DNA of 64,000 bases, from assembly GCA_016748015.1 (NCBI GenBank), contig JAAOMT010000718.1, forward strand, positions 124,001 through 188,000, in the 5' to 3' direction. Position numbers and translations under genes: made by a program. This DNA comes from Geosiphon pyriformis uo1. Its lineage: Eukaryota > Fungi > Glomeromycota. The notes under the pieces were generated by a model, which had not been told where the DNA came from, did no database searches, and was given only the letters and a program-made list of their open reading frames with translations. Shown piece by piece: positions 1,136-62,708 of the stretch; the stretch's first letter is position 1, and the number at the start of each line of letters is the position of its first letter.

Positions 1136-2000
1136 TGTTACAGGTGATTATTTCTGCTGTCAAATTAAATAACAAACCTGTAACTTGGTGCTCAAAGCTA
1201 ATTGCAGTTGATATTGATCTGAAGGTTTAGTATCTGAAGGTTTTGGTTGAGTCCTTTGTATAATGAACAGAGATTCAATGGTGTCGATAGTAGATGTATC
1301 TTTCCAAGAGTTTTTCCAATTTCTTTCTCAGCGTGGTAGCCAGATTTAGTCTGGCAGTCGTGCCCTTCTGGTAAGCTATCTGATAATATATATAAAATCC
1401 TACTCTTATTTCTGGGTCTTTTACTAGGCTATCCTTGACGTCAATAACTCAGTACTTAATCTTTTAATTAATTAGTATACAACAAAAAATCAAAGAACAA
1501 AAGAAAATAAAATAAAAAAAAAATAAAAGAAAAAAAAGTAAAGAAAATAAGCCAAGGCAATTTGGTCCGTTAGTATCTCGTCAATAGCCGTGATCAAGAG
1601 CTATTGTTTTAGCGTGGTTAAGTATCAATTACTATCAACATAAAGTGTTGATAGTGGAGAGTGGATTGAGATATGGAATGATTATTTATTTGATGATTAG
1701 TTTCTTGGCTAAGAATTCTGTGGTATCAATTCTGTCTTTTCTGTTTCTAACACTACTGCTATATATACATAATTGAGATTCTTTAATTCCTCGATTCTTC
1801 ATGACAGGAATTCTGGAATTCCTGGAATCCTGCGATTCTGTTGAGAGGAATCCTGGAATTTTGGAATTCTGCAATCCTTCATTGAAAATCCTAAAATTCC
1901 TGGAATCTTGCAATTCCTGAGAGGAATCTTGGAATTCCATATTTACTATACCTACTTCTGATTGGCTAATAATTATGCTAAAATATTTCTATAAGTAACA
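1136..2000 (-). repeat. 3' LTR of Gypsy A (865 bp)
   Basis: Direct repeat of 10382-11246; TG...CA termini; adjacent to the PPT. Confidence 0.96.
1800..1940. repeat. Array of GGAAT(T/C)C(C/T) motifs in U3 of family A/C LTRs
   Basis: About ten degenerate copies of ggaattcc/ggaatcct. Also present at ~11050-11185, ~54090-54230 and ~63355-63495. Confidence 0.8.
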
Positions 2001-2016
2001 TTATTCCCTCCTTTTA
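2001..2016 (-). other. Polypurine tract of Gypsy A
   Basis: Minus strand TAAAAGGAGGGAATAA immediately before the 3' LTR. Same sequence in C at 54299-54314. Confidence 0.85.
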
Positions 2017-2643
2017 ATATTGAGTTCCATTGAAATCTAACTCATGTAATTCCCCCTCTTGAAGTATTTTCTGGATTTTGTTTTCAAGAATTACTTGTGT
2101 TATTTGGGTCTGTAATTCTTCAAATTGAGCATTGATGATTTTTCCCAATTGATTACTAGTCACCATATCCATTGCTCTGTTAAGCAATATTTCTGGTTTA
2201 TCCTGAAATGCTGTGTGTATTTAGTATATGGCTCGGGCTTGTGTGGATAAGTTGTTCTTTCCCAAAAAATGTTCTAATTGTTGTAGTATTCTTTTGTCGA
2301 ATAATCACTTTGTTTTATCCGTATATAGATTCTGAATATTTACATGTTGTCTCAAGTAAAAATAACAATAGTTTTGTGGAAATTGTTGTATCCACCAATT
2401 CCAAGTTTCTTTAGTCAACTCTTGATATAGTAACTCTTTTGTCGATTCTTTTATTGCTAATTTTACTTTCACCATGATTTTGTCCACAGTATTTTCAGTT
2501 TTCTTCTGTGTTCTGGATTGCAATGTCTTTCTAGTATCTTGATATTGAATAGTTTGTTAATTGATTGTAATCTCCATTTCCTGGTGTTGGATTAATTGAA
2601 AGAGTTGTTGTGCTAGTGAGTGAATGTTGTTTGTAATTTCCAT
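2014..2643 (-). pseudogene. Gypsy A ORF3 (extra 3' ORF, 210 codons, unknown function)
   Basis: MEITNNIHSLAQQLF...ELDFNGTQY*. The three internal stops can be explained by C>T changes. Same length in C; homologous to B 14910. Confidence 0.8.
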
Positions 2644-2697
2644 TTTTCTGATATTTCCTGTTGCGTCTACTATGTCTTTATATATTCTTTTGATGAA

Positions 2698-4080
2698 TCA
2701 ATTTAACGTGTTGTTGTCGATAATAATGATTGGTTCCAGATCTCATGGAATCTCATCTGGTTGGACTAGTATTCTCTGTACTCCTAATTGTGGAATATTA
2801 CTGGTAGATAGTAGTGTGATGTTGTAATATGGTTTCAGTCGATCTCCATGTGCTGCTTTGGTTAAAATTTTGTTATCCAATCTTAATTTGTAAGCTCCAT
2901 TTTCTAGAATTTTTTTTATATGAAATGGTCCATCTCATTTGGGGTCGAATTTTCCACTCCATTGTTTTTCCACTTTGGTATGATGTAGTAATACTTTGTC
3001 TCCAATCTTGAATTCAACTGGTTTGTCTGGTAGTTGACTATTATGTCTTTCTTTCTGTTTTTTTTGTGACTTTTGAATATTATCAGCTGCTCTTCTTTGT
3101 TTGTTTTCTAATGTTTCCATTAAGTCATATGTTCTTCTCAGCAATGTTTCTTGAAAATTTTCCTCTGTTATTGGTTCAGCTGGATATGTATTAATTTCTC
3201 TTTCTACTGGTAATGTTGCTATTCTCCCATACACTAATTTAAATGATGTTGTTTGTGTAGTATCTTGTTTCATTGTCTGATAAGCAAATAGTACTGATAG
3301 TATAAACAAATCCCAATTGTTCTGGTTTTTTTGGCTGAGCTTGGCTATTGCTTCACACAATGTTCTGTTGAATCTTTCTACTAATCCGTTGGTTTGTGGA
3401 TGGTATGGTGATAATAATGGTCTTTTGATTCCAAATCTTTGGCTCAATTTTGTTAATGTTTTGTTTACAAAATGAGTTCCTTGGTCTGATAATAATTCTT
3501 TTGGACATCCATATCGACAAATCAACTCCTGATGAATGAATTCGGCAACGGATTCTGCATTCACTTTTTGAATTGCTTTTGCCTCTGGCCATTTAGTGAG
3601 ATAGTCCATAGCTACTGCTATGTATCTGTTTCCTCTGCTGGTAACTGTTAATGGTCTGACTAAATCAATTCCCATATGGTCAAATGGTTGTCTCACTTTG
3701 ATTGGTCTTAATGGTTCACTGGGTCTTGTTTCTCCTTTTCACTGACAAGCATCACAATTTTGAACATATTGAATGATGTCTGGATACATTGATGGCCAAT
3801 AGTATTTTTTTCTAGTTCTTTTTATGGTTGCTTCTTTGTGAAAATGTCCTGCTGTTGGATTTGAGTGCATGTTGAATAATATTGTCTCTTTTTCTGGCTC
3901 CATAATTACTCTGGTTGGTTGATCTGGATCTCTTCTATTTTTCTGATAAAGTATATTTTGGTGAGTGATAAAATATTTTGATTGTTGTTTGATACTTCTT
4001 TGTTCCATATGAGATAAATTCTCCTTGAACTGTTGAGTATTTAGATAATGTTGCAATTGTTGATATTTTTGTATGTTCAT
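2698..4080 (-). pseudogene. Gypsy A integrase (separate ORF starting MNIQKYQQL)
   Basis: H..H/C..C zinc finger (MHSNPTAGH...CDACQ). rve core (GIDL, LSDQGTHF, YHPQTNGLVERFN). GPF-like C-terminal module. Confidence 0.92.
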
Positions 4081-4142
4081 CTTTTGTTGTATTTTCCGTT
4101 GGTATTGTTCTGGTTTTATTATATTTTTGGGTTGAAATGTTC

Positions 4143-5420
4143 TTAGATTTGTCTTATTCACAATAAGCCATCAGCATTTCCGTTGTCTTTTCCCTTTTTG
4201 TAATGTATAATATAATTGTATGATGCAAGTGCCATTTTTCATTTTGACTGTCTTCCATCTCCAAATTCTTGTTTTTGGAGTGATGTTAATCCCTTGTGAT
4301 CTGTGTATACTTCAAACTTCTGGCTCAAGTATTCTTTTCATTTCATAACGGCCCAGTATATTGCTAAGTGTTCTTGTTCCAGTGTTCCATAGTTCTTTTC
4401 GGCTGGTGTTAAATCTCTGCTGGCATATGCTACTGGATGTTCTCTGCCGTCCGATCCTCTCTGAGATAATACTGCTCCCAATGCTTGACTGGATACATCG
4501 GTGGTGATGATGAATAGTTTGCTGTAATCTGGATAGATCAGTACTGGAGCTTGGATGAGCTTTTTCCTCAGAATATCAAAAGCTTTTTGTTGACTTTCTG
4601 TTTATTCATATTTCGCATTTTTGTTTTGTAGTTGATTGAGTGGCTGCGCTATCTTGGAAAAGTTCTTGATAAAATGATGATAGTAACTGGCAAATCCCAA
4701 GAATGATTTCAGTTCTGTTATATTGGTTAGTACTGGAAAGTTCTTTACTATCTCTATTTTCTCTGGATCCGTTTTGATGCCATCTTTGCTGACTATGTGT
4801 CCTAAAAATTTGAGTTCTGTCTTGCCAAAGAAGCATTTTGTTGCATTTAATTTCAGTCTTGCTCTTCTTAGTCTTTCAAACACTTGTTGAAGATGATGAA
4901 AATGATCAACAAACGTTTTTGAGAATACATTGGTGTTGTCCAAGTATACAACTACTGATTTCCACAATAAGCCTGTGTAGACAATTTTCATTAGCCATTG
5001 GAAAGTTGCTGGGGCATTGGTTAAGCTAAATGGCATTACTTCAAATTTGAAATTCCCTTCTCTAGTAGTAAATGCTGTCTTTTTTTTGTCAGCTGGATTC
5101 ATGGCTACTTGCCAGTAACCACTGTCCAAATCTAATGTGGAGAACCATTTGTTCCCACCGAAAGCATCGAATAATTCCTGTATTCGTGAAGTTGGATAAC
5201 TGTCTCTATGAGTTACATCATTGAGTTTCCTGTAGTCTACACAAAACTGGATTTTTCCATTTTTCTTACAGATGAGTACCACTGGTAACAACCATGGACT
5301 CATTGATGGTTGAATTAGCCCATTGTCAAGCATTCTGTTTATCTCTTAACAAATAATCTCGTGGCTGGCTGGCAGCACTCTGTATGCTCTTTGTTTGATT
5401 GGTATTGCATCTCCAGTCTT
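4143..5420 (-). pseudogene. Gypsy A reverse transcriptase and RNase H
   Basis: FCVDYRKLN, LDLDSGYWQ, MPFSLTNAPATF, YLDN (YxDD), FLGH. RNase H TDVS..AYASR..NADGL, ending IRQI-TAA at 4143. Confidence 0.93.
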
Positions 5421-5974
5421 GATCTAATGTTGAATGATGTCAGTTCGGCCAAACTCATTTTTGCTGGCAAAGATGTTATTGAAATTGATGAGTAACATCT
5501 TGAGCTGCATACATTGGAGTGAATCTAAGTTTCCCATGTTCATTTGTTCCAATTGTTCTGGTTGGAGCAAATAACATTCATCTTGTCTATAGATTGTTTG
5601 TGATGTGATGTCAACATATCCACAAAGTTGTGGAAAGTCTGGAATGGGGTTTGGTGGTTGGTCTTCTATTTCTGTGGTTAAATATCCAATGGTGGTTCCT
5701 TCTGGTATGCTGATGACATTGCCAGTATTGTTGTAGATGAGAATTTTTATGCTGCTATAGCTTTTGGCTGGTATGTGGAGATTGATCAACCCAATCTCTC
5801 CCAATTCACAAAGAGTTGCTTCCGCTTCAAATATCTGTTCTTGCTCTTTTTCCTTCCTTTCTATTGCTAACATGTACTGGCTATATGGTGGGATGGAAAT
5901 AGCTTGACCAGTTGAAATAATTTCTTCTTGGCCAACAATTTCTTCCTCTGCTATGTTAATTAGTACATCTATTC

Positions 5975-6401
5975 TACCTGTGGATCTGAATCCCTGTATT
6001 CCTCTCACCGTTATTCCTAATTCCTCCCTCTTTCCTACTGATACTAATTGAGCTATTCTAACCAGAGGCAGAAATATTGCTTGTGCTATCTTTTCATTGG
6101 GCTCTATTACATAGGTCTTTTCTGAGTCATTTTGTAGCATAGTGATGATATTTCCTACATATCCCGCGTCAATTATTCCTCCTCTTATATTAATCCCTCT
6201 TTTCGCTAAACTACTCCTAGATGCTAATTGAACCATGGTTGTTGCCAGAATCTCTAGTACTATTCTCAGATCAATGTAGGTGTGTGAATGTGGTTTTAAT
6301 TTGATGGCATCTTTTCCTGGATATCTCAGATCAAACCCTGCATCAGTATTATGCACACGTTCTGGCATAATACCTTCCCCATTGTCACTATACCATTTCA
6401 A
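5975..6401 (-). pseudogene. dUTPase domain in Gypsy A pol
   Basis: All five trimeric dUTPase motifs: DAGFDL, RSSLA, GIIDAGYVG, KIAQAI, RGIQGFRSTG. Confidence 0.93.
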
Positions 6402-6579
6402 CTCTTGTTCCTTGGAGAGATTTGGTAGTGCAATGTATTGTTCATAGTTTAAATTGGAGTTTGTATCTGAGTTGGAATCATTGTCATTGTTGTTGCCATT
6501 TTGAGCGGAGCTTGAACTGTTGTTGTTATATTATTGTCGAAGTTTGAATCACAATTGATCGGCAATTCTGATTCTGATG

Positions 6580-7275
6580 CACAGCTGCTGATTGGTTCTT
6601 CCTCTTCCAGAATCATGTAGATCATGTGTGGTGGTGGATTGTAAATGAGGTCACACTTATCACAATACTGGAAGTCACAGAGAATTAGGCAGTGTTGACA
6701 TAGTCGAGTGTTCAACTGCTCTAACCATTGTTCTTGTTCTTCCCTTGTGGGTACTAATTCTTGGTAGTGTTCATGGAATTGTTCCGGATCCAGGAGGTTT
6801 ATGATGGGTTCTGCGTCCCAGTCAAGCTCTAAAGGTTCTGGGGGGTTGTCTTTGATCGTTTTTATCTCTTCTGGTGTTGCCCCTTCGATTTTTGCAAATG
6901 CCATTTGCCAAATTTTGTCGTCGTTATGTGGGCAACTGTCCAGTCACTGTACAGTTCTTCTTCAGACTGCTTCTATTGGAGTTCCTTTTCTTACCCAATC
7001 ACTTATTAGAATCATGTATTAACACAATATGTCGCACATTCCTCCACGTCCTGAAATGTTATGCCACATTCCTTTGTCCAAGAGAGTCTCTTCACAAGCT
7101 AAGCATGGCTGATTGTCCCATTTTCCTACTTGTTTTAGTCTTCCAAAGTGTTCAAGGATGCATGGGCAGCAATAGAACCTAGTTGCCATTGAATATTCCT
7201 TATCGTCCCCACAGCATGCACCCATTGACAACAATTTCTTGTCACAATTGACGCATATAAGCTTGGGTCGACAAT
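6580..7275 (-). other. Cys-rich (putative multi-zinc) region between protease and dUTPase
   Basis: CVNC..ACC..YCCPC..KWDNQPCLAC..CDILC..CQHCLILCDFQYCDKC. The pattern is conserved in B, C and the relic at 51.5-52.1 kb. Confidence 0.7.
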
Positions 7276-7599
7276 AGGTAGATTGTTGTGGTATAGTATA
7301 GGTGTTATAAGCAGTGGTGGTTTGAGTGGTCTCTTTTTCTTTTTCTTTTTCCTTCCCTTTATTTTCTTTGTTTTCTTCCCATTCCCAGCTTGAAGTCAGT
7401 TTGCTTTCATCATTGTCGGTCCATGTCAGGTCATCAGTTTCCCAGGTAAGTTCTTCTTTTTGTTTCCCTTTTTTCTTGTTGTTGTCATCTCAGGAGAGTA
7501 TTGGTGGCAGCTTATTGTGCTCTTCATCAGCCCATGATACTTGGTAGGCTTTTCAGGTAGGCTTTTCTTTCTCCTCCTCCAGCTCGATCAATAGTTTCT

Positions 7600-8010
7600 T
7601 TCTTGGAGAAGTTTTGAAATGGCCATATGTGGCTGGAACACATATGTGTTGGCCCTGATACATTAGCTGGAGTTCCTGGGTGTTCCAGTCTAATGTTGCA
7701 TTGACTTTGAATAGCCAGTCATTACCAACAAGAGCTTGGTATTGAGTGGCTTTTATTACTAGAACTTTAATGGGAGTCATGATGCCATTGACTTCAAAAG
7801 GGAAATCGTCGATTTCGCCGATTGGAGTTTTGGTCGCTCCATCAGCTGTGATGATTCTGGCACTGGCAGCTCGATCAACTCAGCAACCTAATTGATCCAT
7901 GAGTTGTCTAGTAATTATGCTGCCAGCTGATCCACTATCTAGGATGAGTTTGATGGGGTGACCATCAACTCTGGCATCCGTGTACATTGCTGTTATGAGT
8001 TTCTTTTCGA
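7600..8010 (-). pseudogene. Gypsy A aspartic protease
   Basis: LILDSGSAGSII active site; ALVGNDWL motif. Confidence 0.9.
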
Positions 8011-8199
8011 GAGCAGCTCTACTGAATAACGGTATTGGTGTGTTTTCTTCGAGTTTGAAAGGAAAGATGGCTGCTAGGAATTCATTACTAGAGATGGTTG
8101 CCGGTAGAATGGTGTTGGTAGGGATGTGCTGATTGGATTCTGTGTTGTTGGATGTGGCGTTTTCTGGGGTAACTAGGAGACTCAAATAATGTTAAGAAT

Positions 8200-10350
8200 T
8201 TGGGTTTTGGACACGACTGGTATCCAAATTCCGGGTGTGTAATCCTGATGGTGGGTTTAGCGAACTGGGGATCAGTTGGTGAACAACCATCGCCAATCTC
8301 CAGTTTTGAGTGACTCTGGATCGAAGGGGTTCTGGGTTGGTGTTTAAATTGGTTGGAATTGATAGATAATTTGTGGCTGCGGCTGATGAATCGGAGGTTG
8401 ATATACTGGTGGTTGATAGATTGGTTGCTGCGTCATGGGCAGGTAATTATTTCGATATTGGTCTTGACTCTGATTGAATAATGATTCGGAGTTTGGAACT
8501 GACAATTGGGGTTTCGATATTGATTTCCCGATTGTTGGTTATTTAGGTGCTGGCGATAGTCAATTTAGATATGTCTTTGTTTATCACAATAGTGGCAGAT
8601 ATGTATTTCCTGTTGCCACTGTTGATTGGTCAATGAAGATGAACGTGGTTGATTTTGGCCATGATTAGAATTTCCTTAATTATTGCGTTATTGTGGAGGC
8701 TGATAAATGGCATGATTGTCAGCTAAGTATCCTTCCAATCTTTTATTAATTGATTCACTGAACTTCTCCAATTTAGAATCCAATTCAGATGATCCATTCA
8801 TTACTAGGTTAATGGTTTGGGCGTGATTAGCCTCTGACTTGGCGGATTCAAAATCTCTGGTGTGTGTAACTGCATCTTGAAGGGTACCTGGATGCAATGA
8901 CTGTACATGTTGCAAGATGCTACTGCGCAGGCCACAAATAAACTGATTGAGTATCTGTGGTGCTGTGAAATAATTGGCGTCAATTGCTTGAATTTGGCAT
9001 AGGTTTTGATGGAAGCATCCCAGGTAAGTGGTGACTGCTTCAGTTTCTTCTTGTTTTATAGTGGTGAATGCATTAACTAGGCAATTGATGCTGTTATTGT
9101 TGCTGAAGTATCTTAGAAATTCCGCTTTGAAGGCATTGAAATCTTGTGGTTTATTAACCAAGCTTTGATACCATGAATTGGCAGTATTCTTGAGAAAGTA
9201 GGGAATGGCTTGCATTGCTCAAGCATCATTCCATCCGTTGGCTGTGATGGCTTTTTCTACATTGTTCAGCCATATTTGAGCATCATTCTCTTCGCCAGTA
9301 AAGTTGTCGAGTTTTGCAATTGGTGCGTAGACCATTGGATCTAAGTTAGGTGGTTGTGGTGGCTGTTAAAGCAGTTGTTGTTGTCCTGGCTGTTGGGGTG
9401 GTAGCTGAAGTGGCTGCTGTATGGGTTCAGCTATGGAATTAATCAGCAGTTGATTGATGACAATTACTGAAGGTAAGTTTTGCTGATTAATTAATTCGGG
9501 TTCTTGATTTCTTTGATTTGGTGGTGTTCGAATATTCGGAATTTTGATTTCTGGATTTTTTAACTATTGCTGAGTTTGAAGGTTCGGGGTTTCAACTTCC
9601 GGGTTTTCAGTGATTGGGTGCTGGTAAGTGAATTCTTGATCCTCTGATTCTTTTTCCTTCTTTTCTGATTCCGCTGCTTCCCACGAATCAGAAATTCTGA
9701 AATCTGGTGGAGGCAGTGATGATCAAAGTCCTGATGGAGTTGATAATCGTGAATTAAATCCCTCAAAGTATTCATCATATGGTCCTAACAATTCTGTTTT
9801 CCTTTGTCTACTTTGGAATAGGAATTGTCCAAATGCTGATGTTGCAGTTGATGTGAATGTGTCTGTTGATGATATGTTGATGGCGCTTCCAGGTGTATAG
9901 TGGTAGGATGGGTTGCTTGGAGATTCAACTCTGTTTTTTTTCCAAGCAGGTGGCTGTATTTTTCTGGGCATTACTACTGGTGTTTGTAATTTTCCCTTGC
10001 CTTTACTAGCGTATGTAATTGGATATCTTTGTTGAATGTGATGTTTAATTTCTTTGTTGATCTCAGTGATGATGGATGTGAAATTATAATTTGTTGGTAG
10101 GTTGGTGTTTTGAATTAATTTCTTATAGAAAGTTTCTCTTGCTGATTCAGTATTCACTGGTGTTCTTAATAAAGAGAAAATCTTTTCATTGACGTAGAAA
10201 TTGAAGGCTGATTTGGTGGATATATGATTGTGGTTTAATCCCAAGTATTGACAATAGTGTTGAAATAAGGATTTTGTGAATCCTAAATGGTTTGCTCCTA
10301 TAGTTTCTAATTCTGCCACTTTTGGTTTGGTGTTGTCGGTGCTGGTTTTC
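8200..10350 (-). pseudogene. Gypsy A gag with long N-terminal extension
   Basis: Capsid-like region MVYAPIAKLDNFTGE...NQFICGL. Decayed CCHC knuckle CHYCDKQRHI*IDY at ~8560-8600. The upstream 9723-10319 ORF is in the same frame. Confidence 0.85.
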
Positions 10351-10362
10351 TGTAGGATTATA

Positions 10363-10379
10363 CCTCACAAGGAGCACCA
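10363..10379 (-). other. Primer-binding site of Gypsy A (TGGTGCTCCTTGTGAGG), tRNA-Ile(UAU)-like
   Basis: TGG starts 2 nt after the 5' LTR. Complement resembles the eukaryotic tRNA-Ile(UAU) 3' end (...CCTCACnnGGAGCA-CCA). The tRNA identity is inferred from memory. Confidence 0.75.
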
Positions 10380-10381
10380 AA

Positions 10382-11246
10382 TGTTACAGGTGATTATTTC
10401 TGCTGTCAAATTAAATAACAAATCTGTAACTTGGTGCTCAAAGCTAATTGCAGTTGATATTGATCTGAAGGTTTAGTATTTGAAGGTTTTGGTTGAGTCT
10501 TTTGTATAATAGACAGAGATTCAATGGTGTCGATAGTAAATGTATCTTTCCAAGAGTTTTCCCAATTTTTTTCTCAGCGTGGTGGCCAGATTTAGTCTGG
10601 CAGTTATGCCCTTCTGGTAAGCTATCCGATAATATATATAAAATCTTACCCTTATTTCTGGGTCTTTTACTAGGCTATCCTTGACGTCAATAACTCAGTG
10701 CTTAATCTTTTAATCAATTAGTATACAACAAAAAATCAAAGAACAAAAGAAAATAAAATAAAGAAAAAATAAAAGAAAAAAAAGTAAAGAAAATAAGCCA
10801 AGGCAATTTGGTCCATTAGTATCTCGTCAATAGCCATGATCAAGAGCTATTGTTCCAGCATAGTTAAGTATTAATTACTATCAACATGAAGTGTTGATAG
10901 TGGAGAGTGAATTGAGGTATAGAATGATTATTTATTTGATGATTAGTTTCTTGGCTAAGGATTCTGTGGTATCAATTCTGTCTTTTCTGTTTCTAATACT
11001 ACTGCTATATATACATAATTGAGATTCCTCAATTTCTCGATTCTTCACGACAGGAATCCTGGAATTCCTGAAATCCTGCGATTCTGTTGAGAAGAATCCT
11101 GGAATTCTGGAATCTTGCAATCCCTCATTGGAAATCCTGAAATTTCTGGAATCCTGCAATTCCTGAAAGGAATCCTGGAATTCCACATTTACTATGTCTA
11201 CTTCTAATTGGCTAATAATTATGCTAAGATATTTCTATGAATAACA
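10382..11246 (-). repeat. 5' LTR of Gypsy A (865 bp)
   Basis: Direct repeat of 1136-2000; adjacent to the PBS. Confidence 0.96.
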
Positions 11247-13237: not shown

Positions 13238-14222
13238 TGTTATCAGAGGTTTTTGGTCTCTTTTCTTAAATGTTGTTAATGTTGATTTGTTGTGAATTCA
13301 CATTTCCAGGAAGTAGTTGGACCTCTAGTAACTGAATTTATCTTCAAATTATCTCCTATAATTTGAACTTGCTGGGTTTATGAGTGGAATGGCCAATTTT
13401 ATGCCAGTTGTTTTATGTAGTTATGTTATAGTAAACATCAACTCTTTCCCAGGAATTGCTCATCTGGAAGCTTACTAAAAATGTGTAGTTATTTTGCTGT
13501 GAAAGTCAACTCTTGTACAGGAATTTCATCTCTAGGCTACCCTAATGATTGTAATAAGAAAAGAAAAAAAAAATAAAAGAAATGTAAAAGAAAATAGAAT
13601 TTTGTCAAGAGAAATGTTTTCTATCCAGGCCTGGAGTCACTAATAGTTTACTGAAATTGGTAGCTAATCAATTTCGAAATGTTAGTTGGGTTTTTGGAGG
13701 TTTTTTTCAAGTACAATAATTAAAGAATTTGGTTTTTCGAATTTATTTGATATTTATTTCTTTTTGTGTGTATAGGAATGGTTCTAAGTAATAAATCTAA
13801 AGTAAGATACATTTTCTCGAAGAGAGATGCTCTTCTTTTATACAACTTGTCATAACACTATTCTATGAACTTGAACTTTGCTATTTTCTACAATTTCGCT
13901 GAACTAAAGATACATTTTGGCAAACTACAAGTTATTTCTGTGAACTATTAGATATTTCAGTGAACTATCAATTATTTCGGCAAATTTCTACAAATTTCAG
14001 CAAACTTTTGAATGTTACCTAGTTTGGGGTATTGCATGATTTGATCATCGCAATTAGGTTACATTTGTGTTGTGTACAAATTGGATTATTAATTAAATAA
14101 TAATTTCAAACATTTTGCTAATGTAATAAGTGATAATTTGAAATGATAATATATGCTAATTAATAATAGGATTTATAAGATAATTTCATGCTAAATAATA
14201 TCTCTAATTTCGTTTAGTAACA
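13238..14222 (-). repeat. 3' LTR of Gypsy B (985 bp)
   Basis: Direct repeat of 22109-23081. No evident similarity to A/C LTRs beyond the termini. Confidence 0.95.
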
Positions 14223-14910
14223 TAACTTCCTTCTCAAGACTGAGCTCTGTTGAAGTCCAAATACTGTCTGTAATTTCCAGATAGTAATCCACAATTATTA
14301 AAAAAATTTGGTCTGAAAATTGTTGAAATTTCAGTTCTGTAAGCTTTCCAATGTATTGAATCTTCAAAAGTCATAAAATTGGGTTTTGTATGACATTTTC
14401 ACAGGTGTGAAATAGGTCATAAAGTCTAAGAGCAGCTCTGAGCTTGTAGCAACTGTTTGTTGGTCCAGCTGTTGTCTTGAATTCGTTGTAGAGTTGTTTC
14501 TGAATAGCTTCTTTTGTGAGGTTTGCTGTTGTAAGTTCCAGTTTCTGTTCATAGAGTGTTTTTCCAATGTGAAAATATCTATAGATTGGAGGATATTCAG
14601 TGTTTTCCTCATTGAGACACAGTTGAAGTCTTTGTTGAATTGTAGCATTTGGTGGAATACTAATCAGAGTGAGCATTAAGTTTTCTTTTAAAGCAAGCTT
14701 TAAAAGTTCTGGCAGGTGAATTCCAGAATAACTTCTTGTGTTCTTCTTATATGGGTGATATTTTTGCAAATTTGGGGCTAAATTTGTAACTACTTCTGTT
14801 TGGATATAATTAATGTGGTTTCCAGTAACAGTAATGGATAATTCAGGTATTGTTTTTAAAGCTAACATTAGTTTTTGGGATAATTGTTGAATGTTTTGAG
14901 AAATAGTCAT
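14223..14910 (-). pseudogene. Gypsy B ORF3 (homolog of A/C ORF3)
   Basis: 179-aa ORF 14371-14910 continues past one TGA (…QYIGKLTELKFQQF…) into the PPT. Shares motifs with A ORF3. Confidence 0.8.
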
Positions 14911-15016
14911 TATAAGAGATTTGAAATAAAAGAAAATTATTTTTGGTGTATGGGTTTTTATGTTATTTTTGTTTTGATTGTTTCTAAATTATAAGAGAAT
15001 AACTAGTAAAATTAAA

Positions 15017-16402
15017 TTAAGTGTTCAGATTGAAAGATTGTTCAATGACAACTATTGGTTCTAAGTTTTGGGGAATATCTTCAGGATTGACTAAAGGGGA
15101 ATGTGTACCAATTTGTGGAATTAATGATTCAGGATTGTTTCTGGAATGATAGTGTTTCAAATGATCTCCATGTGCAACTTTTGTTAGGATTTTGTCATTA
15201 AGTCTTAGCTTGTATGATCTGTTGCCTAGGACTTTATAAATAAAGAATGGTTTATCCCATTTATTTTCAAATTTTCCACTCCATTGTTTTTCAGCTTTAG
15301 TTCTGTATAAGAGAACTTTGTTTCTGATTTTAAATTCATTGGTGACTGAAGGCAATTTGTCATCATGCTGTTCTTTTTGTCAAGCTTGAGAGTGTTCAAT
15401 ATGGGTGGCTACTATTCGTCATTTTCCTTCCAATGTGCTAAGCAGAGTGTAGGCTTTTCACTAAAGTGTTTCTTGGAAATTGTTTTCATCAATTGGTTGT
15501 GCTGGGTATGTTTCTACTGTAAAACTAATTGGTAATGTTGCTGTCCTTCCATAAGTTAAATCAAATGGTGTGTGTTTTGTGGTATTTTGTTTTAGTGTTC
15601 TGTATGTTAACAACACTGATGAAATAAAGATATCTCACTCTTGCTCAAAATCGGTTGAGACTTTGGCTAATGACTTACACAATGTTCTGTTAAAACGTTC
15701 CACAAGTCTATTTGTTTGTGGATGGTAGGATGAAAACAGAGGTCTTTTAATATTAAATCATTCGCAAATTTCTTGTATTAGGTTGTTTACAAAGTGTGTT
15801 CCCTGATCAGATAAAAGTTCAATTGGACATCCATGTCTACAAATGATGTCTTCATAGATGAAATTTGCTACTGATTTTGCATCTGCTCATTGAATGGCTC
15901 TGGCTTTGGGCCATTTAGTAAGATAGTCTACAGCTACTGCAATATAATGGTTTCCTTGAGTGGTGATAGATAGTGGTCCAACTAAATTGATACCAATTCA
16001 GTCAAAGGGTTGTCCAACTTTGATTGGATTTAATGGTTCAGTAGGGCATGTTCCTCCTCTTCTTTGACAATTATTATAAGATTCGACATATTTGTGAATG
16101 TCTTTTCTTATTCGAGGCCAAAAGTAGTATTCTAGTGTTCTTTGGGTGGTGCCATTTTTTCCGAAGTGTGCTGATGAAGAATCTGAGTGCATGTTGTATA
16201 ATATGGTTTCTTTTTCCTGTTCTTGTATTAATCTGAGTGATTTGTTTGGGTTTTTGAAATTTCGATAATAAATAATGTTGTTGTGTAGAAAATATTGTTT
16301 GGCTTGTTGTTGTAGTTGATGTTTTTCATCTGGAGACCAATCTGTTGGGATTGTTAATGTTTCCAAATATTGCTTGAGATTGTTGTAGTTTTTTGAATTC
16401 AT
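15017..16402 (-). pseudogene. Gypsy B integrase (separate ORF starting MNSKNY)
   Basis: MHSDSSSAHFG zinc finger; LSDQGTHF; YHPQTNRLVERFN; C-terminal KPFFIYKVLGNRSYKL. Confidence 0.92.
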
Positions 16403-16454
16403 TGTTTGTTGGCTCTTTTGGTTGGTTAAGTTGAGTATTGGTTTTTTGTGTTTT

Positions 16455-19400
16455 CTAATCTTGTCTTATTTTGAAGAGACAGTTAACATTGGTGTGGAGT
16501 TTTCCTGGTTTGTGATGTACTATGTATCAATAGTTTGCTAGAAATCTTGTCCATCGGATTTGTTTTGCATTCAGCTGAGTATTTTTGTTCTGAAGCCATT
16601 TGAATCCAATATTATCAGTGATAATATCGAATTTTTTAGGCCTGAGATAAAAATTGAAGTGGTGTAGAGCCCAAATTACGGCTGCTGTTTCTAGTTCTAT
16701 GGCAGAATAAATTTTCTCAGCTGGTTTTAATGTTCTGTTGGCATAGGCAATTACTCGCTTATTTCTATTGTCATTTAATTATGATATGATAGCACCAAAG
16801 GCAGTATAAGAGGCATCTGTTGCTAATCAGAATTGGTTGCTGAAATCTGGATAGGCAAGGATTGGAGCTGTTGTCAGTTTTTCCTTGAGAATTTCAAAAG
16901 CTTTTTGGTGTTCGGTAGTCCATTTGTATTCAATGTTTTTGGTGGTGAGCTGGTTGAGGGGTTTTGCAATTTTCGAGAATTCTTTGATAAACTTCTGATA
17001 GTAAGATGCTAATCCTATGAATCCTCTTAGTTCTGTAGTGTTTCAAGAAGTTTTGAAGTTTTTGACAACACTGATTTTTCCAGAGTCCGGTTTGATTCCA
17101 TCTTTACTAATGATATGCCCAAGGAAGGCCAAGCTTGTTTTTCCAAAGTAGCATTTTTCGATGTTGAATTTTAGTCCTGCTTTTTATAATCATTGAAAAA
17201 CTTCTCACAGATGTTTTAAGTGTAATTCAAATGATGGAGAATAAACATCAGTATCATCAAGATAAATGACTATTGACTTCCAAAGAAGTCCTTGGTACAT
17301 TAATCTCTGAAACATTGCTGGTGCATTGCATAATCCAAAAGGCATTACATTGAACTCGTAATTTCTGTCTTGGATGGTGAATGTTGTTTTGGGGTGATCT
17401 TTGGGATTCATAGCAACTTGCCAGTAACCACTTTCTAAATCTAGTGTTGAAAAGTATTTGGATTTTCCAAGGGCATTTAACATGTTATCAATCCAAGGAA
17501 AGAAGTAGGCATCTCCAATTGTAACACTGTTGAGTTGTCGATAGTCAACACAAAATTAGATCTTTCCATATTTTTTTTAACTAGCACTACAGGTGAAGCC
17601 CAAGGACTCATGAAGAATTGGATGAGCCTATTGTTAAGCATTCGTTGTACTTCTTTTCGAATGAATTGGTGGCTTTCTGAAGCAACTCGATATGCTTGTT
17701 GTCTTTTTGGTTTGGCATCTTCTGTATAAATTTGGTGTTGGACCAAATCGGTTCTTTCTAAGTCATTGTTGTTTTCAGCAAAGATATTAGCAAATTCTGC
17801 AATTAGCTCTTTGAGCTGGGTTTGTTGTTGTGGTTCAAGTTGTCCCATGTTAATTCGAGATAGTTTTTCCATAACAACATAGTAGTTTTCGGAGCTGGGA
17901 TTTGGGTTGATTTTTGGTAGTGAATGTCCAATAATTTCAGAGAAATTGGGAACTGTTTGGGGTAATTCTTGTTGAAATATATTACTGTGAATAACTCCAA
18001 TTTTTAAATTATTTAATAAAATTATGGGGTAATTATTGGGATTATAAAAAGTAACTCGGACTTTCTTTGTTCTTTCTGGAATATAAATGTTTGGGATTGA
18101 AATATTATGTTCCAAGCAGACTTGTTCATTGGACTCAAAAATTTGTTGTGTGGTTGTTGGCTTTGGGCAGATGTAGATTTCCAGATGTTTTCCAAAGAGT
18201 GAGATGGTAATTAGTTGTGGAAGTCTGAGAATCTGGTGGAATTTGTTCTGTGTGTTAAGAGCTATATTAACTAGAACTGTGAATCATCCAGTTGAACCAA
18301 AACCTTGGGTTTTTCTATCACTTTTTCCTAATTGTTCTCTTTGATTGACTAGTTGCAAACCTGAAATGTTGATTAGGAGTAGTTAAATAGCTTGGGCAAT
18401 TTTTTTAGCATATTTGATCTTGAATGGTCTGTCAGTTTTATTTTGAAGCATCACTGTAATGTCTCCAGTATATCCAGCATCGATTATTCCTCCTCTGACA
18501 TTGATTCCTTTGCTTGCCAGAGAGAACCGGGAGGTGATTTGAACCATTGCTCCTGGTGGGATTTCGAGTGCAATTTTGAGGTTGATTTTTGTGAAAGATT
18601 TGGGTTTGAGAACAAGAGTATCTTTGCCTGGATATTTTAGGTCATATCCAGCATCAATTTCGTGTGCTTTTTTGGGTTTTATTCCTTGTCCATTGTTGTT
18701 GAAGTATTTAAGTTGTAAGGCAGGCTGATTTTTGATAAGGTAGATAGGTGTTGTTTCAATTTTTTTTGTTGCTTTAGGTTCTCCAAATTCAATTTCGTTC
18801 TCATTATTTTCACTGGGCAAAAGGATACTAAGAGCGTAGCATTCAGAACACCACTGTTCATCACAAAGCATAATGCATTCTTCACATAGCCTAATGTTCA
18901 TTTGCTCTAATCATTGAATTTGAGCTTCTTGGATTGAGTAGGTGTGACTTGCAATTTGGTGGTAGACTTCTACTTCGTCTTCATAATCGAATCTAGCTAA
19001 TTCCATGGTGTATTCAATGTATTCTGTTTCCTTCATTTGACGAACATCTTCTTTGGTAGCTCTATTAATTAATGCCATTGCTAGGTTGAAAATCATCTCG
19101 GCATCATGGGGGTAGTAATAAAGTTTGTTGAGAGCACTGTTGTATGCCGCATTAAAGGGTGTTCCTCTTTTTACTTTTTTTGAAATTGATAAAGCATATT
19201 GGCAGGTCTGATCGCAGACTCCTTTTCTCATGGTTATATCAATCCAATTGCATTTTTCCAGTAGCATATCTCCACAAGTCAAACAAGAGGTGTTGTCCCA
19301 TTTTCCGCTCCTTTTTATTAGATGGCCCCATCGTTTTCTGTGGTAAGCTTTGCAGTAATAACAAGTATGATTTTCATATTCTTCTTCAGGTGAAATGCAG

Positions 19401-22107
19401 GCTCCCATTGATGATAGTTTCTTGTGACAGTCCTTACATTTAAGGGGAATATAGGGGCGTTGTTTCCTTGGTTCGGGTTTTGAGTAAGGAATATTCTATC
19501 CAGAGGTTTTGGGTTCAGAGTGTGGGGTAAAATGTTCTTGTTCTGTTTCATCGGCCCAGTTGGACATTGATCCAAGAGCCATGAATGTTTCAATGAGGGG
19601 TTTTTTCTCTTCTGGTTTGAATTCAAAAGCTGGGGTTTTTTCAGAGCATTTGTTAAATATACCACAAGTGGCAGGTACCTGGGCGTGTTGTTCTTAGTAG
19701 AAGATTGTTAACTTTTGTGTTTCCCAATTCAGATTAGCATTGGCTTTTTGAAGCCAATTATTTCTGATGAGAGCTTGGTACTGGGGTGCGTCCATTACAA
19801 GAACTTTGACTGGAATGGTGATTCCATCAAGAGTGAACAGAAAATTGTCAATTTCTCCTACTGGGGTCTTTTTTATGCCATCGGCAGTGACAATTACTGT
19901 TTGAGCTGGTCGGTCGACATTTTTCTTCAACTGTTGCATTAACTGGTAGGTGATAATGCTTCCAGCAGATCTACTGTCTAAGATCAAGCGAATTGTCTTT
20001 CCTTCAACTTCTGCTTCAGTGTACATAGCCGTGATTGCTTTTTGTTCATTGGCGGCTGCATTGCTAAGCAGGAATGATGACTCATTTGCTTCAAACTCAA
20101 AAAGAAATATATCTGAAAGGTTAGCGTTTTCAGCAATTCTGGCTGGTGGAATTGTAGTGGGAGTATAGGAAGGGTTTTGTTGTTGTGCTGCAGCTCTACC
20201 TTCTGAGGGTGCAGTATGATAAAAATTTTGTTCTTCTGGCATTGTTAAATAACTGGGTTGAGTGTGGTAGTGGTTGGGTCTTAGTTGATTGAAATTTCGG
20301 GGAACCAATTGGTTTTTTGAACTGATTTTATTGTTGTTTACTTGGTATCGGTTTTGTGGTGTGAATTGATTTTGTGTGATCAGTCTTCGAGCAAGTACTT
20401 GATAATATTGTGTAGGTGGTTGTTGGTATTGCTATTGGATTGGCTGTGGGGCAAGCTGATAATAGTTATTTTGGTATTGGGGTCTTGGTGGATAGTAAGC
20501 TGGTGGTGGTGGTTGATAATAAGATTGCTGTAGTAAAAAGTAACGTTGATTACTCCTATTTTGTTGGTCTTATTGTAGCTTTCTGCAATCTTTTTTCCAG
20601 TGGCCAGAGATTCCACAGTAATGGCAATTCTGAGGCTGGTTATTGGAAAGTGGTGCAAAGTTATTTTGATTTCGTCTTTGGGGTGGTTGATATTTTTGGG
20701 GTTGCTGTTGTTGTTGATTGGTGAAATAGTTTTCAACCTTCTTTGTGAGTTGGTCAATTTTTTTCTCAGCTGCTGAGCTGGTTTTTTCAATTGCCAAATT
20801 TACAAGTTTTGTACAATTGGTCTCTTTCATGGCCATTTTGTATCTTTTTGCATACTGTATGGCAGAGTTTAAATCTTCTGGCACATGTGGGTGAACCTTT
20901 TTAATTAGTTTATCTTTTAGACCAGCAATAAATTGATTCAAGATTTGAGCATCAGAATAATAATCATTTGTTTTGAGTTGGCAAATTCATCTGAGAAGTT
21001 TGTTGAATTTCCCAATATAAGTCATAACAGATTCGGAGGGTTCTTGTTTGATATTTTGAAAACGATTGCAAAGGGTGATGGAGGTATTATTGTTGATGAA
21101 CTGTTCAAGGAAGGCTGCTTTGAAAGCGTTCCAATCATTGAATGGGTGGCCAAGTTTTCAAACCATTCTCCTGCTGTTCCTTTGAGAAAGTAGGGAATTG
21201 TTCTTAACATTCTGGCAGCATTCCATCCATTTGCATCTCCAGCTTTAGTAACTTGGTCGAGCCATTCTTGGGGACTGGTCTCAATGTTTTCTCTATTAAA
21301 TTCAGGGATTTTTGTAATGTATGTTGTCATTTCGTCTTCTTTGTTTTCACTGTCTATTGATTCTTCTTCAGATATTTCAGGTTCGTTTTCTTTGTTCGCT
21401 GCTGTCTCAGAGTGTTCACTTTGATTTTTAGCTAGAAAGTCAAGAAGATTGAAACTAGTTTGAAGAGGTTTTTGTTGTCTGATGAGACTTCTGAGTGATG
21501 TAAAATCTTCTGGTCTTGCAAATCGATTCAAGGGTGAATTAGGCATTTGTGCTTGTGCAAGTAAAGCTGGAAAAGGTGTGATAGTAAGTGGAAGTTTTGA
21601 ACTGGTTCCTTGTTCAGGTGTTTGTAAATGGTTGGCAGTTGTTTTTGGTAGTGTTGGAGTATTTGGGGTGGTTTTTGAGTATTGCTTCAATTTGTTTTTG
21701 CCTTTGTTGCTTGTTTTTGTTTCCAATTCAAAATCAATAAAGTATTGAGACTGCACTAGGTATGTTTCTTTATAGTATTTGATAATGTTAAAATTAAGTT
21801 CGTGAAAGTAAGTGGCAAGTGTTTTGCTGTTAAGGTCTTCAGTTTCCAACTGTAAATAGTGTGCTAAATTATTGTAAAGGTTGCTTCTAACTTCTGAGAT
21901 CTTGTAATTTCCAAAAAGATAATTGTTGATGCAGTTTTCAATGTATTGGTATACTGATTTCTTGACAACTTCAATTCCATCTGGGATGTTGAATCTTTGC
22001 TTGCAGTGGGTGTAAATTGATTGGTAATACTCTAGAGTTGTTGCATCTGGTGTGGTCGCCACTTTGAATTTTGTTGTTGCTGTGTTATTTTCGTGGGAGA
22101 GCACCAA
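16455..22107 (-). pseudogene. Gypsy B gag-PR-Cys-rich-dUTPase-RT-RNase H polyprotein
   Basis: ORF pieces 21022-22107, 20570-20941, 19694-20308 (LILDSRSAGS), 18911-19408, 18383-18901 (DAGYDL, GIIDAGYTG, KIAQAI), 17477-18115 and 17205-17483. Ends IRQD-TAG at 16455. Confidence 0.92.
22090..22106 (-). other. Primer-binding site of Gypsy B
   Basis: TGGTGCTCTCCCACGAA starts 2 nt after the 5' LTR and shares TGGTGCTC with A/C. Confidence 0.75.
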
Positions 22108-22108
22108 A

Positions 22109-23081
22109 TGTTACTGGAGATTTTTGGTCTCTTTTCTTAAATGTTGTTAATGTTAATTTGTTGTGAATTCACGTTTCCAGGAAGTAGTTGGACCTCCAGT
22201 AACTGAATTTATCTTCAAATTATCTCTTATAATTTGAATTTGCTGGGCTTATGAATAGAATGGCCAATTCTGTGCCAGTTGTTTTATATAGTTACATTGT
22301 AGTAAATGTCAACTCTTTCCCAGGAATTGCTTGTCTGGAAGCTCACTAAAAATGTGTAGTTACTTTGCTGTGAAAGTCAACTCTTCTACAGGAATCTCGT
22401 CTGTAGGCTACCCTAATGATTGTAATAAGAAAATAAAAGAAATGTAAAAGAAAATAGAATTTTGTCAAAAGAAACGTTTTTTATCCAGGCCTGAAGTCAC
22501 TAACAGTTTACTGAAATTGGTAGCTAATCAATTTTGAAATGTTAGTTGGGTTTTTGGAGGTTTTTTTCAAGTACAATAATTAAAGAATTTGGTTTTTCGA
22601 ATTTATTTGATATTTATTTCTTTTTGTGTGTATAGGAATGGTTCTAAGTGATAAATCTAAAGTAAAATACATTTTCTCGAAGAAAGATGCTCTTTTTTTA
22701 TACAACTTGTTATAACACTATTCTATGAACTTGAACTTTGCTATTTTCTACAATTTCGCTGAACTAAAGATACATTTCGGTAAACTACAAGTTATTTCTG
22801 CAAATTATTAGATATTTGGTGAACTATCAATTATTTCGGCGAATTTCTACAAATTTCGGCAAACTTTTGAATGTTACCTAGTTTGGGGTATTGCATGATT
22901 TGATCATCGCAATTAGGTTACATTTGTGTTGTGTACAAATTGGATTATTAATTAAATGATAATTTCGGACATTTTGCTAATGTAATAAGTGATAATTTGA
23001 AATGATAATATATGCTAATTAATGATAGGATTTATAAGATAATTTCATGCTAAATAATATCTCTAATTTTGTCTGGTAACA
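22109..23081 (-). repeat. 5' LTR of Gypsy B (973 bp)
   Basis: Direct repeat of 13238-14222. Confidence 0.95.
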
Positions 23082-37916: not shown

Positions 37917-38089
37917 TGTTATTATTGAGCTGTCAATTATAAATAACAGCCAGCGAGAATAAAAAATTATATATTTTGGAAATGATCTTCATGACTGCAT
38001 TCTAGATATATTTTCGGATTTTCCCAGAAGAATTTGAAAAATATCATATTTCAAGTTGCCTGCCTTTTTTACTATAAACATTCTCGAAA
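37917..38089. promoter_or_regulatory. Short divergent intergenic region (likely bidirectional promoter) between HOM2 and CYB2
   Basis: Only 173 bp separate the head-to-head ATGs. Confidence 0.5.
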
Positions 38090-53430: not shown

Positions 53431-54298
53431 TGTTACAGGTGATTATTTCTGCTGTTGAATTAAATAACAAATCCATAACTTGGTGCTCAAAGCTACTTCC
53501 GTGGATAAGGTTCTGTAAGTGTTGTATCTGAAGGTTTTAATGGAGTCCTTTGTATAATGGACAAAGATTCAATAGTGTCAATAGTAGATGTATTTTTCCA
53601 AGAGTTTTCCCAATTTTTTTCTCAGCATAGTGGCCAGATTTAGTCTGGCAGTCGTGCTCTTCTGGTAAGCTATCCGATAATATATAAAATTCTATCCTTA
53701 TTTTTGGGTCTTTTACTAGGCTATCTTTGACATCAATAACTCAGTGCTTAATTTTTTAATCAATAGTATACAACAACAAAATCAAAAAAAAGAAAATAAA
53801 ATAAAGAAAATAAAATAAAAAAAATAGAGAAAATAAGCCAAGGCAATTTGGTACGTTAGTATTTTATCAATAGCTGTGATCAAGAGCTATTGTTCCAGCG
53901 TGGTTAAGTATCAATTACTATCAACATGAAGTGTTGATAGTGAAGAGTGGTTTTGAGATATGAAATATTGATTTATTTAATGATTTATGTTCTGAGTTAA
54001 GGATTCTGTTGTATCAATTCTGTCTTTTCTGTTTCTAACACTACTGTTATATATACATAATTAAGATTTCTCAATTCCTCAATTCTTTACAACAGAAATC
54101 CTGGAATTTCTGTAATCCTGCGATTCCTATGAGAGGAATTCTGGAATTCTGGAATCCTGCAATCTCTTGTTGGGGAATCCTGAAATTCCTGGAATCCTGC
54201 AATTCCTGAAAAGAATCCTGAAATTCCACATTTACTATGTCTACTTCTGATTGGCTAATAATTATGCTAATATATTTCCTATATTTCTATAAGTAACA
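53431..54298 (-). repeat. 3' LTR of Gypsy C (868 bp)
   Basis: Direct repeat of 62709-63563; similar to the A LTRs. Confidence 0.95.
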
Positions 54299-54311
54299 TT
54301 ATTCCCTCCTT

Positions 54312-54941
54312 TTAATATTGAGCTCTGTCAAAATTCAACTCATTTAATTCCTCCTCTTGAAGTATTTTCTGGATTTTGTTTTTGAGAATTACTTGTGTTA
54401 TTTGGGTCTGTAATTCTTTAAATTGAGTATTAGTGATCTTTCCCAATTGATTACTGGTAACCATATCTATTGCTTTGCTATGCAATATTTCTGGTCTATC
54501 CTGAAATGCTGTGTGTATTCAGTATATGGCTTGGACCTGTGTGATTAAGTTGTTCTTTCTCACAAAATGTTCTAATTGTTGTAGTATTCTTTTGTTAAAT
54601 AATTGCTTTGTTTTATCTGTATATAGATTCTAAATATTTATGTGTTGCCCCAAGTAAAAGTAACAATAATTTCTTGAAAATTGTTGTATCCACCAATTCC
54701 AAGTTTCTTTAGTCAGCTCTTAATATAGTGCCTCTTTTGTTGACTCTTTTATTGCTAATTTTACTTTCGCAATGATTTTGTCCACCATATTTTCAGTTTT
54801 CTTCTTTGTTCTGAGTTGTAATGTCTTTTTAATATCTTGATATCAAATGGTTTGTTGATTGATTGTAATCTCTATTTCCTGGTGTTGGATCAATTGAAAA
54901 AGTTGTTGTGCTAGTGAGTGAATATTGTCTGTAATTTCTAT
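54312..54941 (-). pseudogene. Gypsy C ORF3
   Basis: 630 nt, colinear with A 2014-2643; start codon decayed ATG>ATA. Confidence 0.8.
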
Positions 54942-54995
54942 TTTTCTGATATTTCCTGTCGTGTCTACCATGTCTTTATATATTCTTTTGCTGAA

Positions 54996-56378: not shown

Positions 56379-56439
56379 CTTTTATTATATTTTTTGTTGG
56401 TATTGTTCTGGTTTTGTTATTTTTTGTGTTAAAATGTTC

Positions 56440-62400: not shown

Positions 62401-62680
62401 GAGTGCAAAGCTGTGATTTCTTGGTAAGTTGGTGTGTTGGATTAGTTCCGAATAGAAATTTTCTCTTGCTAATTCAATGTCAACTGGTCTTCCTAAGAAA
62501 TCGGTAATTCTTTCATTGACATAGAAGTTGAAAGCTGATTCTGCTGGGTAATAGTTGTTGTTTAGGCCTAGCTGCTGGCTGTACTGTTAAAATAAGGATT
62601 TTGTGAATCCTAGATGGTTTGTCCCTATTATTTCTGATTCTGCCACTTTTGGTTTGGTGTTGTTGGTGCTGGTTCTCTGT
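56440..62680 (-). pseudogene. Gypsy C gag-PR-Cys-rich-dUTPase-RT-RNase H polyprotein
   Basis: ORF pieces starting at 61686, 61248, 60753, 59919, 59244, 59016, 58665, 58305 and 57399 share one frame. Ends MRQI-TAA at 56440. Confidence 0.93.
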
Positions 62681-62708
62681 AGGATTATATCTCACAGGGA
62701 GCACCAAA

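Follow-up and report, generated by a model that had tools for sequence, protein, structure and literature searches.

How does an LTR retrotransposon express and package its integrase (IN) when the enzyme is not encoded as part of Pol? Retroviral IN enters the particle within Gag-Pol. The IN of Ty1 and Ty3 is likewise delivered as a part of Gag-Pol, according to the accessible text of the source (PMC4974528). The window analyzed herein, a stretch of 64,000 nucleotides of the glomeromycotan fungus Geosiphon pyriformis uo1 (contig JAAOMT010000718.1), holds three elements in which RNase H ends in a stop codon and IN begins behind it with an ATG of its own. An earlier sequence-only reading had taken these for polycistronic elements and for a strong candidate for an undescribed system.

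Architecture of the three window elements

The three elements (A, B and C; Table 1) each possess LTRs with TGTTA...TAACA ends, a primer-binding site (PBS) and a polypurine tract, and their LTR pairs are 90–94% identical. The target-site duplication is an exact 4 bp in B and C and differs at two of four letters in A, as CpG decay would give. A and C share about 82% DNA identity, and B and C are 57% identical in IN and 51% in RT-RNase H. In A, Pfam families occur in the order gag, protease (weak), dUTPase, RT, RNase H and integrase; Integrase_H2C2 was found in the IN of all three, and rve in A and weakly in C, whose cores were the two scanned. The common layout is LTR, a single-frame gag-PR-(dUT)-RT-RH, stop, IN, ORF3, polypurine tract and LTR.

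Table 1. Coordinates of the elements and their parts in the window
Feature	Positions	Strand	Remarks
Element A	1136..11246	-	full-length decayed LTR retrotransposon; LTR pair ~94% identical
A 5' LTR	10382..11246	-	TGTTA...TAACA ends
A primer-binding site	first position 10379	-	
A gag-PR-dUTPase-RT-RNase H region	4143..10380	-	decayed; ends TAA 4145-4143
A Pol/IN spacer	4081..4142	-	62 nt, 58% A, without ATG, predicted unpaired
A integrase cistron	2698..4080	-	Met-Asn start (ATG 4080); zinc-binding and DDE core; 3 internal decay stops
A ORF3	2014..2643	-	209 codons, 3 internal stops; stops at polypurine tract
A 3' LTR	1136..2000	-	preceded by polypurine tract, ~2004-2015
Element B	13238..23081	-	full-length, decayed, second family; LTRs ~93% identical; 4-bp target duplication
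B stop codon TAG, RNase H end	16455..16457	-	
B spacer	16403..16454	-	52 nt, 60% A, without ATG
B integrase cistron	15017..16402	-	Met-Asn start (ATG 16402); decayed
B ORF3	14191..14910	-	ATG 106 nt past IN stop; frame differs from IN; 1 internal stop
Element C	53431..63563	-	full-length, decayed, A's family; LTRs ~90% identical; 4-bp target duplication
C gag-PR-dUTPase-RT-RNase H, one frame	56440..62706	-	ends TAA 56442-56440
C spacer	56379..56439	-	61 nt, 64% A, without ATG
C integrase cistron	54996..56378	-	460 codons, Met-Asn start (ATG 56378), DDE, SH3-like C-terminal domain; 2 internal decay stops
C ORF3	54312..54971	-	decayed; in-frame ATG 54971; A's ATG codon is ATA in C

The RNase H stop, the lengths of the A-rich spacers on re-measurement and the Met-Asn starts all agree with the earlier description. 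The single frame running from gag to RNase H in C was also confirmed, with 30 stops in about 2090 codons vs. 127 and 144 in the other two frames. The frame shift of IN that had been described is present in every copy but is not uniform, with an offset of +2 for A against +1 for the other two copies; a 1-nt indel distinguishes the spacer of A from that of C.

These copies are decayed, with 8 stops in A and 6 in C over 874 aligned RT-RH/IN codons. Moreover, the Arg of the RNase H sequence NADxLSR, five codons before the terminal stop, is itself a stop in both A and C, so that a stop common to the copies could be a decay hot spot. That the stop and offset arose by post-insertion decay of an ordinary continuous Pol would thus be compatible with the heavy decay of all three copies and with the nearby stop shared by A and C, and the case that the split goes beyond chance is carried by intact relatives, not by the three window copies by themselves. 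In one DNA sequencing run, 12,595 contig pieces align to window positions 55900-56900. The junction stop and the ATG are absent from the 40 listed of 188 run-vs-window differences, but so is the nearby decayed codon, and no conclusion is drawn from this. The loose ends of nine run contigs keep the RNase H end and the stop, and those of 18 show, weakly, a shorter spacer followed by ATG.

Several further features of the window were recorded. An identical PBS core occurs in A, B and C (10372-10379, 22099-22106 and 62699-62706, reverse strand), which appears similar to the 3' end of an isoleucine tRNA. From the PBS onward, the gag frame runs open without an early Met (10382-11246 and 62709-63563), and gag may start inside the LTR, a reading suggested by relatives with collapsed LTRs (L016). 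Protease and dUTPase are separated by a long insert rich in Cys and His (6452-7489, reverse strand, in A, with matching parts in B and C), which gave no Pfam match. Element B appears to be inserted into a decayed LINE-like element, which flanks it at 11585-13096 and 23422-26696 (reverse strand) with endonuclease- and RT-like pieces recognized by eye and a weak RNase H match. Between B and C lie host genes for an aspartate-semialdehyde dehydrogenase-like protein (36730-37554, reverse strand), a cytochrome b2-like protein with cytochrome b5 and FMN dehydrogenase parts (38078-39562, forward strand) and a cytochrome P450 (47127-48983, reverse strand).

Relatives and phylogeny of the split layout

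A search with the IN of C (E <= 1e-30) returned 1345 proteins. The best 120 of these are 43–51% identical and 392–453 aa long; 118 of the 120 begin with Met, and 99 with Met-Asp, Met-Glu or Met-Asn. As this search was length-limited and gene callers begin at Met, longer proteins were searched too. Among the best 120 of 495 long matches, four reach at least 41% IN identity and the others at most 38%. All four are Cetraspora or Rhizophagus gene models; three are devoid of the IN N-terminus, and one joins gag to IN without RT. The close matches that look fused (P0122, P0123, P0127, P0329 and P0330) are eukaryotic gene models in which RNase H is incomplete, the IN N-terminus is missing, or both, and from the protein models alone we read their fusions as probable products of predicted introns spanning the junction.

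Metagenomic contigs yielded 80 loci, 33 of them with RNase H upstream of IN after exclusion of four loci with IN before RT. The split layout was found in 24, a fusion in 7, and 2 were too broken for a call. At IN identities of at least 40%, 21 of 21 loci are split, and the fused loci lie at 29–39%. The IN frame is open over its aligned part in 18 of the 24 split loci. On the other side of the junction, long RT-RH relatives include IN-less Gag-Pol proteins of up to 1819 aa. Of the in-clade IN-less Pol proteins, 43 of 51 terminate no more than 30 residues from where RNase H finishes, mostly 1–8 residues past D-x-L-S-R, which is the stop site of the window copies. Named members of the clade belong to Glomeromycotina (Rhizophagus, Cetraspora and Entrophospora); one relative labeled as an Acidobacteria MAG is probably mis-binned. 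IMG/VR contained only three integrase loci, all unrelated. In addition, a Pol tail of 280–585 aa past RNase H was observed in the subclade near the RNA motif described below (L005:3500-4438, L014:2420-3271 and L026:4948-6702), with no confident Pfam match.

Relatives that are open on both sides of the junction thus stop at the same place, and a sense codon with an in-frame RH-IN linker is not what they carry. Post-insertion decay is refuted as the source of the split by the split metagenome loci and the Pol protein ends, and we give it next to no credence. A separate, ATG-initiated integrase cistron and a polycistronic gag-pol / IN / ORF3 organization, both proposed from the window, are thereby upheld, and the split layout, with its RNase H stop and its own IN gene, is conserved over a deep clade with near certainty. 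They do not amount to a wholly new kind of system: the layout is a variant, and the elements are otherwise standard Ty3/Gypsy ones.

A single origin of this layout is likely. In a FastTree phylogeny of 235 RT-RH rows, all 21 split rows and the 51 IN-less proteins fall in one branch (support 98), together with four fused rows, namely three Rhizophagus clarus models and P0302. Two of the three R. clarus models were inspected, and both jump from within RNase H into IN. P0302 is truly fused, with an IN identity of only 36%, and IQ-TREE places it among the fused rows. In the IQ-TREE analysis of 72 chosen rows, 29 of 30 were grouped with a support of only 86; the group took in a long fused row and left out L062. 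One clade was not rejected by the AU test (p 0.83), and the constrained tree scored higher. In an IN tree of 136 rows (roughly one in three of the database proteins, with chosen rows added), stand-alone INs are interleaved with LTR-borne ones (support 89), along with one long-branched fused row, P0130. P0130 and P0302 were noted as divergent fused Pol-IN proteins near the clade. In the former, the Met of the IN start is retained, and this protein may be either basal or re-fused.

Junctions, ORF3 and the expression of integrase

The relatives' junctions bear directly on how IN is expressed. Across 27 of them, IN lies in frame 0, +1 and +2 relative to Pol in 8, 8 and 11 cases, respectively. Since all three frames are in use, a fixed recoding event is excluded. 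The shifty-stop frameshift suggested earlier accordingly falls away, as does the weight placed on spacers that are not a multiple of 3, with offset 0 in 8 of the 27. Any programmed frameshift or stop readthrough that yields a Pol-IN fusion would solve packaging, and is suggested by the position of IN close behind RNase H and by the Met kept at the IN start of the divergent fused P0130. Against it stand, besides the offsets, in-frame stops shortly before the IN Met in many loci, a Met column that is invariant in the aligned full-length matches and the lack of a common slippery site; recoding is therefore considered highly improbable.

Junction gaps range from -8 to 827 nt. Overlaps occur in 4 of 27 (-8, -4 as ATGA, -4 as ATGA and -1 as TAATG; none in the window copies), short gaps of 24–163 nt in 19 and long gaps of 365–827 nt in 4. 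The 19 short spacers contain 5 ATGs vs. 13.1 expected (Poisson p 0.01, the kin elements being non-independent), and the window spacers are predicted to be unpaired. At 45 IN starts, position -3 is a purine in 39, vs. 60% at 267 internal ATGs. Position +4 is occupied by G in 36 and position +5 by A in all 45, and these two preferences may reflect protein constraints. Gaps at the IN/ORF3 junction resemble this range, with values of -8, -4, +2, 34–137 and 316 nt. Upstream of the stop, k-mer enrichment recovered only words from the conserved RNase H peptide. Motif 1 of the calicivirus TURBS is UGGGA, and it was found in 0 of 24 junctions within 90 nt upstream of the stop. A hairpin before the stop of C (z -3.0) was dismissed as it is unsupported in A, B and L001.

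Altogether, the use of all frames, the overlaps, the ATG-poor spacers and the Kozak-like context fit termination-reinitiation with short scanning best. Judged from these sequence features, IN would on balance be translated from the full-length RNA, by ribosomes that finish Pol at its stop and then reinitiate. A fraction of 40S subunits would remain on the RNA past the Pol stop; in some relatives they would restart at an overlapping AUG, and in the window copies they would reach an AUG of Kozak type by crossing the short A-rich spacer, which is ATG-free and predicted to be unpaired, with a second reinitiation possible at ORF3. Since gag and pol share one frame, IN output would lie far below that of Gag and RT without a need for frameshifting. 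With less support, IN made on an RNA that is soon packaged might enter the particle by binding that RNA or neighboring Gag-Pol, and ORF3 is a candidate helper for this packaging. Without a helper, reinitiation is expected to be inefficient past an ORF as long as about 6 kb. Precedents are at hand: termination-reinitiation has been proposed for LINE-1 and shown for SART1 and fungal viruses, including a victorivirus and a hypovirus, in the portions available of these sources (PMC5972666, PMC10275272, PMC5902531).

The long gaps are harder to accommodate. They contain 7–18 ATGs; the one in L004 is due to a premature stop within the long Pol tail, and those of L007 and L026 are hard to reconcile with simple scanning. 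An extra ORF of 83 aa was seen between the Pol stop and the IN start of L039 (868-1392), and some members may have four cistrons. Because of the long gaps, the main rival remains that IN and ORF3 come from their own shorter mRNAs, made from an internal promoter, by splicing from the 5' leader or by cleavage of genomic RNA. Gap length and frame would then be free to vary as they do, and ATG-rich gaps (L007, L026 and L039) would do no harm; the Kozak context and the ATG-poor leaders fit such subgenomic mRNAs equally well. Short transcripts of Ty1 and Ty3 are documented, as far as the accessible portion of the source goes (PMC4974528). However, a splice acceptor near the AUG is not conserved (in 8 of 27 junctions, the 30 nt that precede the IN ATG are free of AG), and recurrent stop-start overlaps at two different junctions would be unexpected. 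Shorter mRNAs are therefore held to be unlikely, though a serious contender.

A further clue comes from a motif of 37–39 nt that ends 3–32 nt before the IN ATG in 14 of the 80 loci (L005 at 4464-4500, L004, L006, L010, L013, L014, L015, L018, L021, L023, L025, L036, L044 and L047). Three of these 14 show an upstream RNase H, and the 62-nt spacer of L005 is taken up by the motif. In a proposed three-way junction for 13 aligned copies, 98.6% of cells are paired and four pairs change on both sides, the model having been drawn from the same sequences on which it was scored; 0 of 500 shuffles reached its 13 both-side-changed cells. RNAalifold recovers both main helices and folds the interior differently. 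The IN tree places 11 carriers (one a weak match) in one subclade, along with four proteins known as protein alone. Rfam gave no match to the motif at E <= 5 in 20 loci, with one chance-level match elsewhere in a locus; no exact-pattern match was found in viral or prokaryote contigs, and the window does not contain it. From its sequence and position, it is a candidate initiation element or small ribozyme. A second candidate motif, whose core CTGCGTAAGGATA apparently closes a stem, was observed shortly upstream of the IN start in L026 (7398), L055 (28), L058 (56) and, more weakly, L063 (117).

The structured motif that one subclade carries right next to the AUG may instead indicate internal entry or RNA processing, the latter in keeping with shorter mRNAs. 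Under internal ribosome entry, the A-rich spacer, or the 37-nt structure in that subclade, would recruit ribosomes without translation of Pol, and the A content of the window spacers and the covarying motif before the AUG are what would be expected. On the other hand, the spacer sequence is not conserved clade-wide, some spacers being U-rich and some absent through overlap, and the motif is missing from the window. Internal entry is thus regarded as quite improbable, and termination-reinitiation is retained as the preferred reading.

A third ORF follows IN in A, B and C and terminates close to the polypurine tract. Its three versions match one another and the ORF3 of L001, the nearest relative of the window copies in the trees (E 5e-21 to 8e-5). 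In A and C, ORF3 shares the IN frame downstream of IN's TGA, so that a decayed Arg codon and an IN-ORF3 fusion are possible in this family, whereas in B it is out of frame. In 12 other loci, the ORF3 family measures mostly 143–160 aa, up to 230, with its start placed between -8 and +137 nt relative to the IN stop. A profile of this 12-locus family with the window-type ORF3s collected 529 representatives at E <= 0.001, and the family model is a confident helical fold (pLDDT 95). Scored against the broad-family profile, B reached 6.9 bits and A and C fell below 0, the best of 900 shuffles being 8.8. The window ORF3s may belong with the broad family, to judge from a shared Y-x-(L/I)-G ... A-x-R-x-Y pattern recognized by eye and from an alignment-seeded model whose helices follow a similar order, the profile score being not significant.

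ORF3 matched no Pfam family, no solved sequence relative and nothing in Foldseek at E <= 0.001. The best VIA Z of 5.8 is ordinary for helical bundles, and Atlas results were blank or weak; none of this shows that the modeled fold is new. For an envelope glycoprotein, there was no Pfam, PDB or viral-fold match, and the models are small and mainly helical. A fourth ORF in some loci was set aside as probably the next gag start in collapsed-LTR contigs (Retrotrans_gag in L016).

Taken as one account, it is a tentative possibility that an LTR clade of arbuscular mycorrhizal fungi has abandoned the rule that IN belongs to the polyprotein. Serial reinitiation would yield Gag-Pol, IN and ORF3, the 37-nt RNA would steer the IN start in one subclade, and IN would be packaged independently of Gag-Pol, with the helical ORF3 possibly acting as an adaptor or a TAV-like reinitiation factor.

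Novelty and comparison with known systems

The split-IN layout is apparently undescribed in the searchable literature, where no paper describing it was found (Repbase, GyDB and most subscription papers lay outside the scope of the search). The consulted parts of two studies of mycorrhizal-fungus transposons (10.1101/2021.03.30.436303, PMC11952901) and one of fungal Gypsy elements (PMC2864245) make no mention of it, and "separate ORF" is used in other senses in the accessible portions of PMC6431247, PMC4427930 and PMC5911963. Since a widespread clade integrates normally with a free IN gene, the coupling of IN to Gag-Pol appears dispensable. The clade therefore offers a natural system in which to study how eukaryotic ribosomes restart past a very long ORF and how integrase is packaged on its own. 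The layout also accounts for many stand-alone "integrase" gene models in Rhizophagus, and intact members are liable to be called broken, or spliced across the junction, by annotation pipelines.

The elements share with Ty3/Gypsy the TG...CA LTRs, the PBS, the polypurine tract and the gag-PR-RT-RH-IN order. RT and IN are of Gypsy type, the best solved relative of the DDE integrase is that of Ty3 (E 9.5e-47), and the trees place the elements among Gypsy relatives. Every Ty3/Gypsy feature tested was found except IN inside the Pol polyprotein, which is the usual layout and not the basis of the family's phylogenetic definition. A dUTPase between protease and RT is known in fungal elements, as stated in the available text of PMC6431247. 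Ty3 IN is freed from Gag-Pol by the protease within the particle, in the part of PMC4974528 at hand; here, by contrast, IN is a cistron with its own Met, gag-pol occupies one frame, and ORF3 lies behind. Unlike in chromoviruses, the IN C-terminus of C matches SH3_Tf2-1 only, and no chromo family occurs in the best 120 of 1345 IN matches.

Two other groups also depart from the usual integrase arrangement, namely the Ginger transposons, in which a Gypsy-type IN is a stand-alone protein, and the Gmr1-like Gypsy elements, in which the position of IN is altered. In contrast to Ginger, IN resides here within LTR elements, behind RNase H and together with RT-RH; inverted repeats of at least 60 nt were not found in the window. 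Gmr1-like rows keep IN fused and before RT and fall outside the clade, whereas the IN of A, B and C is not upstream of RT. Caulimoviruses, which are not known to have an integrase, are similar in being reverse-transcribing elements with consecutive ORFs on one RNA, and their TAV shows no sequence or fold match to ORF3. Their pregenomic RNA is polycistronic and TAV is a reinitiation activator, as described in the accessible parts of PMC5902531 and PMC10275272.

The closest parallels to the junction itself come from systems that reinitiate. The ATGA and TAATG overlaps of L019, L062 and L009 recall those of the victorivirus HvV190S, the hypovirus CHV1, caliciviruses and influenza B, UAAUG/AUGA stop-start overlaps being reported for the latter two in the available text of PMC10275272. 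These viruses differ in that the window copies are gapped by 52–62 nt, and TURBS motif 1 is absent from the junctions searched. Both junction types of the clade are known from non-LTR elements, with a 63-nt spacer in LINE-1 and a UAAUG overlap in SART1 (PMC5972666, as far as its accessible text goes). In LINE-1 and SART1, however, the downstream ORF encodes RT and endonuclease; in the present elements that place is taken by an LTR-element integrase, behind an ORF of about 6 kb.
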